Shown here in pieces: positions 14,848 to 15,504 of a stretch of 64,000 bases of DNA (position 1 is the stretch's first letter; the number at the start of each line of letters is the position of its first letter). Under the pieces are notes generated by a model. The model worked only from the letters and a program-made list of their open reading frames with translations. It had not been told where the DNA came from and searched no databases. A program made the position numbers and the translations under genes. The stretch comes from Octopus vulgaris (lineage: Eukaryota): the NCBI GenBank assembly GCA_951406725.2, contig OX597835.1:2542001-2606000 (forward strand). The letters are read 5' to 3'.

Positions 14848-15504
14848 TTAATTTACAAAAAAAATCAGAAAAAATATCACAGTTTGGAGTTTAACGTTAT
14901 TAGCCACATGGATCATATTCTGAGAACTACAACGGCAGGAATGAAAAAATCGGCATGTACAAGTAACCTCTTCGCAGCAAGGAGAATTTGGTATAAAATA
15001 GGTGCCGGCACAGTACACTTTTTTACACTTGTGTTCATTTCTCTTAATCTTGTCACTGTAAATACAGAATATGATAGGAAATAGAAAATATTATTAAATT
15101 AAGGTGTCTCTTCAAGGGAGAAAGCAAAGAATATTTAGAGCTGGGATTAGATGATACTGGTGTTTAACTTATCGACGGGACTTGAACTCACAACATGCAC
15201 AACCGAAACAAGTATCCCCAAGTCATTTTTCTGTTCTTTTAACTATCACCTAGTGTATTTTCTCGAATTTTTGAACGACTAAGTATATAAATATATATCC
15301 AGAATTTCATAAGTAGATGTAGACAGTGACAGAGATTTTTAGGCGCAGGAGTGGCTGTGAGGAAAGTAGCTTTCTTACCAACCACATGGTTCCGAGTTCA
15401 GTCGCACTCCGTGGCATTTTTGGGCAAGTGATTGCTACTATTGGCTAGGGCCGACCAAAGCCTTGTGAGCGGATTTGGTAGACAGAATCTGAAAGAAGCA
15501 CGCC

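Follow-up and report, generated by a model that had tools for sequence, protein, structure and literature searches.

A 64-kb stretch of the Octopus vulgaris genome (2.8 Gb), comprising positions 2542001-2606000 of contig C22 (OX597835.1) and referred to here as the window, contains five paralogous three-exon genes in alternating orientation. The mature domain predicted for the second of them, gene 2, is a hypervariable segment at window positions 14929-15039 on the minus strand. On balance, we consider that this eight-cysteine domain belongs to a large tandem octopus family derived from the neuropeptide CCWamide, the products of which would be membrane-anchored, knottin-like peptides that bind a fast-changing partner outside the animal. 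The reading is based on the open three-exon frames, the fixed cysteines, an excess of replacement changes confined to the loops, and a contig that carries, besides the family, a conserved CCWamide gene and copies grading between the two. Its parts differ in strength: there is good support for selection and a strong indication of a neuropeptide origin, while the anchor is a prediction.

Each open frame follows the same plan. Exon A (64 nt, phase 1) is signal-like, exon B (61 nt, phase 2) encodes a propeptide, and exon C encodes a Lys-Arg (KR) site, the eight-Cys domain and a tail of 26-35 residues that is hydrophobic at its end; signal peptides were called by eye, and splicing was inferred from splice signals and O. 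bimaculoides models. In gene 2, all on the minus strand, exon A with the ATG lies at 19813-19876, exon B at 19082-19142 (splice sites read from the sequence), and exon C, with its phase-2 acceptor, at 14848-15055. Positions 14929-15039 are exactly the 37 codons from the KR site, which is excluded, to the eighth Cys, with the pattern C-x4-C-x10-CC-x4-C-x-C-x5-C-x-C. The remainder, 14848-14928, encodes the tail, consisting of a polar spacer, a hydrophobic stretch and the stop codon.

With exon A as the query, the genome gave 36 matches, which is a lower bound; 35 of them fall into four clusters of C22, and the remaining one is on C4. Scanning ~1.0 Mb around exon A and protein matches for the Cys pattern, which favours intact copies although broken ones are also present, identified 56 last exons. 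Together with four that a stricter filter had missed, the total is 60, nearly all on C22 and including the canonical CCWamide exon. The eight cysteines are invariant in 36 of 36 aligned domains, all of which had been selected by their Cys pattern.

Divergence and selection in the domain

A prediction made earlier from the window alone (the original prediction) had described the domain as hypervariable, embedded in near-identical DNA and shaped by diversifying selection. Our recount agrees with its comparison of genes 2 and 4: the 20 codons that keep the same residue (8 Cys and 12 others) are identical in sequence in 20 of 20 cases, 13 codons differ non-synonymously (10 by one base, 3 by two bases), and the CC-to-CxC loop reads EEVT in one gene and SLWKH in the other, with a one-codon indel. 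Exons A and B are indeed identical between genes 1 and 2, which share 8 non-Cys mature residues (checked by eye on the translations). The duplicated flanks were found as well, the block with gene 2 (11722-20890; ~11.7-20.9 kb) matching ~41013-50842 (41.0-50.8 kb) around gene 4, but to call them near-identical was generous, as BLAST identity is 90-97%. Outside exons A and B, the duplication shows 1.8-7% substitutions, depending on the region, and a non-matching stretch near 13.5-13.8 kb.

Per aligned site, genes 2 and 4 differ at 0/64 positions in exon A, 1.9% in intron 1, 1/61 in exon B, 4.4% in intron 2 (2.0% in its last 200 nt), 22.5% in the domain, 4.9% in the tail and 5.2% in the next 200 nt. 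Compared with genes 1 and 5, the gene 2 domain is 35% and 38% divergent, and the adjacent intron 2.5-3.5%. The divergence peak is limited to the domain. For genes 2 and 4, finding no silent change would not be surprising on its own (P = 0.38, taking the rate of the intron), while the 16 replacements in ~77 sites are not expected by chance (p = 2e-7 against the 4.4% intron rate, p = 1e-4 against 7.2%); hence, the signal of this pair is its replacement excess. Averaged over mutational paths by the Nei-Gojobori method, the pair has 0.5 silent changes and 15.5 replacements, and Fisher's test reaches p = 0.012 only under the most favourable split of 16:0. The pair alone is a weak classical test for selection.

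A GY94 codon model written for this analysis was fitted as M0, M1a and M2a to two larger sets. The young set consisted of 8 paralogs, two of them near-copies, and 33 codons, with the CC-to-CxC loop (loop 3) and four pre-Cys1 codons of one copy dropped; the set from cluster 3 consisted of 10 of its 17 exons, the other 7 being left out for their different loop lengths. For the young set, M0 gave a ratio of replacement to silent rates (ω, dN/dS) of 3.1 (p = 0.018), rising to ~10 on non-Cys codons (p = 1e-4). The likelihood-ratio test (LRT) statistic of M2a against M1a was 22.6, or 21.8 with other frequencies and 24.8 under multi-start fitting, which placed ω2 = 12.9 on 70% of the sites. In cluster 3, M0 gave ω = 2.5 (p = 0.002) and M2a an LRT of 24.2 with ω2 = 4.4. 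The predicted dN/dS above 1 was thus upheld with larger paralog sampling. In the young set, silent divergence is also close to that of the adjacent intron, as the original prediction would have it (tree lengths of 0.25 and 0.19, compared with 2.2 at replacement sites).

A tree-free count points the same way. Among single-base changes in loop codons of 10 disjoint close pairs, 49 were replacements and 4 silent (p = 0.0024), and 11 close pairs with Cys codons included gave 49:6 (p = 0.03); the pairs were chosen by eye as the closest look-alikes, and loops that differed in length were left out, as was one pair that showed no differences. Cys codons are unequal in 2 of 80 comparisons and are position-specific, Cys7 for example being TGC in 39/39. 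The same feature of conotoxins has been explained by shared descent together with selection on Cys (PMC3823881; here and below, statements on published work refer to the accessible parts of the cited papers). Taken together, the loops of the domain are very probably under positive selection in the copies tested.

Relation to CCWamide

CCWamide/agatoxin-like precursors usually have three exons and are further defined by eight Cys, by a phase-2 intron that interrupts the codon of a basic residue at the cleavage site, which is their hallmark, by an aromatic residue that often separates Cys6 from Cys7 and by an aromatic, amidated C-terminus, with the first coding exon carrying the signal peptide and the last one the mature peptide (PMC8557429). 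Neither a receptor nor a function is known for the neuropeptide (PMC13311285), which spiders have recruited as toxins (PMC8557429; PMC13311285). A genome search with an outlying family copy found a CCWamide exon at C22:2746316-2746432. It belongs to a canonical gene on the same contig, 140 kb from the window genes, with upstream exons at 2.751-2.770 Mb and a phase-2 last intron that splits an Arg codon. The last exon of this gene (C22:2746316-2746465) equals the end of O. bimaculoides Ocbimv22001854 in 50/50 residues (by eye), a protein listed among the CCWamide sequences in the supplement of PMC8557429. In contrast to this unchanged exon, a likely ortholog pair of the derived family shows 74% identity (50/68) between the two species.

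The family shares with CCWamide the position of the signal exon and of the mature peptide in the last exon, the usual number of three exons (in the five window genes), the Cys order C-C-CC-CxC-CxC and the phase-2 last intron; of the 15 genes in which exon B could be placed, 14 have an intron of this phase, and the one that deviates is a doubtful call on C4. An aromatic residue between Cys6 and Cys7 is present in genes 1, 2, 4 and 5 and in most of the 40 exons listed, but absent in gene 3. The last exon of gene 3 in turn opens with Arg-Gly-Lys, the Arg codon being split by the intron, as in the canonical gene, while genes 1, 2, 4 and 5 split a Ser codon; 34 of the 56 last exons start with a base compatible with Arg. 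C-x4-C spacing also occurs in a nemertean CCWamide paralog (PMC8557429). At the edges of the clusters, at 1.25, 2.42-2.45, 2.62 and 15.93-16.02 Mb, lie CCWamide-like copies, which have C-x6-C spacing and a Trp separating Cys6 from Cys7. In many of these edge copies the hydrophobic tail is already present, and a His-Asn motif of the derived tails recurs in some of them (by eye).

Unlike CCWamide, which has one to three copies, the octopus family counts dozens. Its loops are positively selected, whereas two species of Octopus have the same last exon in the parent gene, and the youngest copies split Ser instead of Arg. The window genes lack the Gly-basic amidation end, having the hydrophobic tail in its place, and are therefore regarded as CCWamide derivatives and not as members. 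These features strongly suggest that the family descends from a CCWamide neuropeptide gene; that CCWamide is the parent, and not the reverse, is inferred from how widely it is conserved. CCWamide thus appears to have independently seeded a family of some sixty copies. As the unchanged parent and the intermediates are kept on the same contig, the transition from neuropeptide to toxin-like peptide would be directly traceable.

Predicted tail and fold

A hydrophobic terminal stretch, taken as a best 11-residue mean hydropathy of at least 2, is present in 42 of the 56 last exons, and 41 of those 42 contain an omega site by our own, loose rule. A glycosylphosphatidylinositol (GPI) signal consists of a small-residue omega site, a polar spacer and a hydrophobic end without any cytosolic tail, which the layout seen here fits. 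AlphaFold models the gene 4 tail as a helix, with a predicted local distance difference test score (pLDDT) of ~86 over the last two blocks. The tail is probably a GPI signal or a plain membrane anchor, and the products would then be tethered to the surface, acting as ligands there rather than as secreted toxins.

For the domain, a search of PDB sequences with the family profile gave spider knottins as best matches (purotoxin-1, E = 0.003; the rows include 2kgu, 1v90, 2n6n and 1iva). These weak matches and the Cys order make a knot fold likely. A wide structural search gave Z values of 2.5 or less, mostly to the tail helix. Genes 1 and 2 contain an Arg-Phe-Phe motif reminiscent of agouti proteins; most copies are without it and the Pfam Agouti match has E = 0.58, and we take it as chance.

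Function and alternative explanations

In the proposed scheme, the signal peptide would direct the precursor into the secretory path, a convertase would cleave at KR, and four disulfides would make the agatoxin-type knot, while the hydrophobic tail would be exchanged for a GPI anchor or retained as a membrane anchor. Repeated duplication would provide copies, selection would spread their loops over different binding specificities, and gene conversion would keep the 5' exons alike. As the original prediction proposed, the domain may bind a fast-changing target; the chance that this partner comes from outside the animal (microbe, parasite or prey) seems to us about even. Ligands displayed on the surface and facing such an outside partner are the reading we favour; a role in venom and one inside the animal or in its gametes are still serious alternatives.

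Several results weigh against it. In cluster 3, the tree length is 0.73 at silent sites and 0.33 in the intron (2.2 times), so that here, other than in the young set, the expectation of silent divergence not being raised holds only in part. In the 11 close pairs, 26 of 347 codons compared differ at several bases. The M2a test can be inflated by recombination, with an LRT above 20 in 4 of 9 reshuffled simulations, although these comprised 8 and 9 replicates only and the optimiser was possibly stuck near its start values. The tail is indistinguishable from neutral (ω 1.75, p = 0.56), with no sign of purifying selection. Assembled contigs of two other runs (X1 and X2, with different organism codes; one is possibly the source sample) match 14909-15065 and 14904-15065, that is 157 and 162 nt spanning the gene 2 domain, with 0 differences. 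This hints, weakly, at diversity between paralogs and not alleles, and fixed paralog differences fit it better than a live allelic arms race. The protein tree separates CCWamide-like from derived copies with a support of 82, but is unrooted and elsewhere mostly below 65. The domain model, with a C-terminal hairpin, has a pLDDT of 55; Foldseek found no match to it at E <= 0.001 (knottins are among the top rows, with E >= 3.6), and the Pfam scan gave no match above its cut-off. As to recombination, no signal was detected within the domain (PHI-like p = 0.32, 27 sites), and neutral simulations with heavy recombination gave M0 ω values of 0.38-2.07 in 58 of 58 runs, compared with ~10 observed on non-Cys codons.

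Could the pattern arise without selection, by local hypermutation or because old domains are shielded from gene conversion that homogenises their flanks? Intron 1 varies much less among the copies than other non-coding stretches do (tree length 0.065, against 0.20 for the upstream region and 0.16 for the end of intron 2), and distances within it conflict with the order of duplication, gene 1 differing from gene 2 at 4/670 positions and from its own tandem copy at 10/666. Gene conversion is thus likely to homogenise the 5' part of the genes, which makes the identity of exons A and B in part less surprising. The many multi-base codon differences and the raised silent divergence of cluster 3 would also fit. 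However, both mechanisms would lift silent sites equally, which the young set contradicts, as does the 49:4 ratio of single-base changes; in addition, the peak ends at the domain edges and the Cys codons hardly vary. This explanation is largely refuted, and we consider it very unlikely. An assembly or reading artefact could be suspected from a 23.5-kb tandem block in this region that is possibly an uncollapsed haplotype, but relatives are present in O. bimaculoides, and for the domain itself the X1 and X2 contigs, which match without difference, rule an artefact out; overall, its probability is close to nil.

As a venom family, the peptides would be products that the posterior salivary gland releases and whose evolution is directed at ion channels or receptors of prey, with the tail as a removable propeptide. 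The recruitment by spiders sets a precedent in the same family (PMC8557429; PMC13311285), the pattern with site-specific Cys codons resembles that of conotoxins (PMC3823881), 49 of 56 cores are net positive, and 14 of 56 copies are without a hydrophobic tail at the threshold used. Yet the tail is kept in most copies, a dibasic site early in it occurs in only 7 of the 56 exons and in no window gene, and the main text of an octopod venom-genome paper, searched by term, does not mention agatoxin, cysteine, knot or conotoxin (PMC7656900). We regard a venom role as rather unlikely. Doubtful, too, is that the anchored knottins serve as internal modulators or identity tags, acting on neuronal or sensory receptors of the octopus itself or in the recognition between sperm and egg, and diversifying with an expanding partner family. 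The parent gene is a neuropeptide, an anchored peptide is well placed to act on its own cell or on one in contact with it, three loci combine one exon A-B pair with three C exons, the gene 2 domain is invariant in the two other runs, and anchored toxin-like modulators exist in Lynx1 and sleepless/quiver. Against this stands the ω near 13 on most loop sites, since values that high are more typical of conflict between organisms or sexes than of internal signalling. A natural tethered-toxin repertoire, in which some fifty GPI-anchored knottins, some via alternative last exons, would tune or label the octopus's own neurons, sensory cells or gametes, is put forward tentatively. If true, a single chromosome would still show the parent gene and each conversion step, from the gain of the tail to the shortening of the loop and the shift of cysteines.

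Comparison with known systems

Toxin-like disulfide domains held on the cell surface, as predicted for the octopus family, are shared with GPI-anchored modulators and with engineered tethered toxins. Of the natural ones, Lynx1 and sleepless/quiver use the three-finger Ly6 fold and are, to our knowledge, not known as fast-evolving arrays. Fixed Cys scaffolds with hypervariable loops, a conserved signal region and preserved Cys codons are found in conotoxins and spider agatoxin-type knottins (PMC3823881), and spider eight-Cys toxins weakly match the family profile; these are released venom peptides, however, whereas the octopus family has the predicted anchor. The CRP-I peptides of Mytilus are likewise a mollusc multigene family with a pre-pro region that is conserved, a last exon that is hypervariable and positively selected, phase-1 and then phase-2 introns, a dibasic site opening the last exon and site-specific Cys codons, and their function is also unknown (PMC4558851). 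They differ in having six Cys (C-C-CC-C-C) instead of eight, in being secreted, with no membrane tail described, and in being reported only from Mytilus (PMC4558851); the comparison is one of features, not of homology. Hence, the combination of fixed Cys and fast loops is already known from conotoxins and mussel CRP-I, and the novelty of the octopus family appears to lie in its source and form. The literature searched contained no natural knottin version of a tethered toxin and no description of this family, though subscription papers and unseen supplements could hold one, and a term search for it gave no match in the readable supplement files of PMC9712504. The family is apparently undescribed.

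Copy variants and annotation

Six copies (C22:3271519, 3289396, 3319245, 3347471, 3361628 and 15900742) form a subfamily in which the eight Cys are kept but rearranged to C-x-CC followed by a single Cys, so that the disulfide scaffold is putatively rewired. The three loci with one detected exon A-B pair and three tandem C exons lie at C22:3391906-3383966 (minus), 7697186-7680926 (minus) and 15910663-15916299 (plus), suggesting either alternative last exons or orphan exon duplicates. Degraded or odd copies at C22:2467854, 3298055, 7598501, 7607408, 7632851, 7643390, 7725245 and 15897601 show defects such as a lone exon A, a missing start codon, an atypical donor, a non-hydrophobic tail, an internal stop or lost cysteines, consistent with birth-and-death turnover. 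The lone dispersed copy at C4:141449909-141454900 stops two residues past Cys8 and would therefore be secreted. The tandem block mentioned above, C22:2518853-2542326 against 2542367-2565868 (window 367-23868), is a direct repeat of 98.7-98.9% identity that carries second copies of genes 1 and 2, and is either a very recent duplication or an uncollapsed haplotype.

A homologue search with exon C alone found none, and Atlas matches scored below 0.9 and were uninformative. Two further runs, X4 and X5, have coverage of a relative that is limited to its tail and 3' flank. In O. bimaculoides, three loci (LOC128250513, -514 and -516) account for four RefSeq proteins, each named 'uncharacterized', that have the same architecture, exon joints and hydrophobic tail. 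The isoforms X1 and X2 of LOC128250516 are quite different precursors under one locus number, and reflect either merged neighbours or a shared upstream exon. One O. vulgaris protein record was found, a 273-aa model; as it strings together exon pieces of five plus-strand paralogs, the family is hidden in public annotation.

Other genes and repeats of the window

Gene 1 (6098-11342, plus) has exons at 6098-6161, 6833-6893 and 11120-11342, with the domain at 11136-11249 and an intact frame of 115 aa. Gene 3, an older paralog (30530-33868, plus), has exons at 30530-30593, 31692-31752 and 33643-33868. Gene 4 (44864-49865, minus) has exons at 49802-49865, 49075-49135 and 44864-45074, with the domain at 44945-45058. 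Gene 5 (60022-64000, plus) has exons at 60022-60085 and 60752-60812, and its exon C extends from 63997 to a point 207 bases beyond the window. Intron 2 of gene 2 contains a very high-copy short interspersed repeat (15310-15480), with a depth in the millions in assembled contigs. Between genes 2 and 3, inverted and tandem repeats occupy 23400-24200, 26757-27345 and 27760-28515, the last including a perfect 280-bp inverted pair (27760-28039 and 28236-28515).
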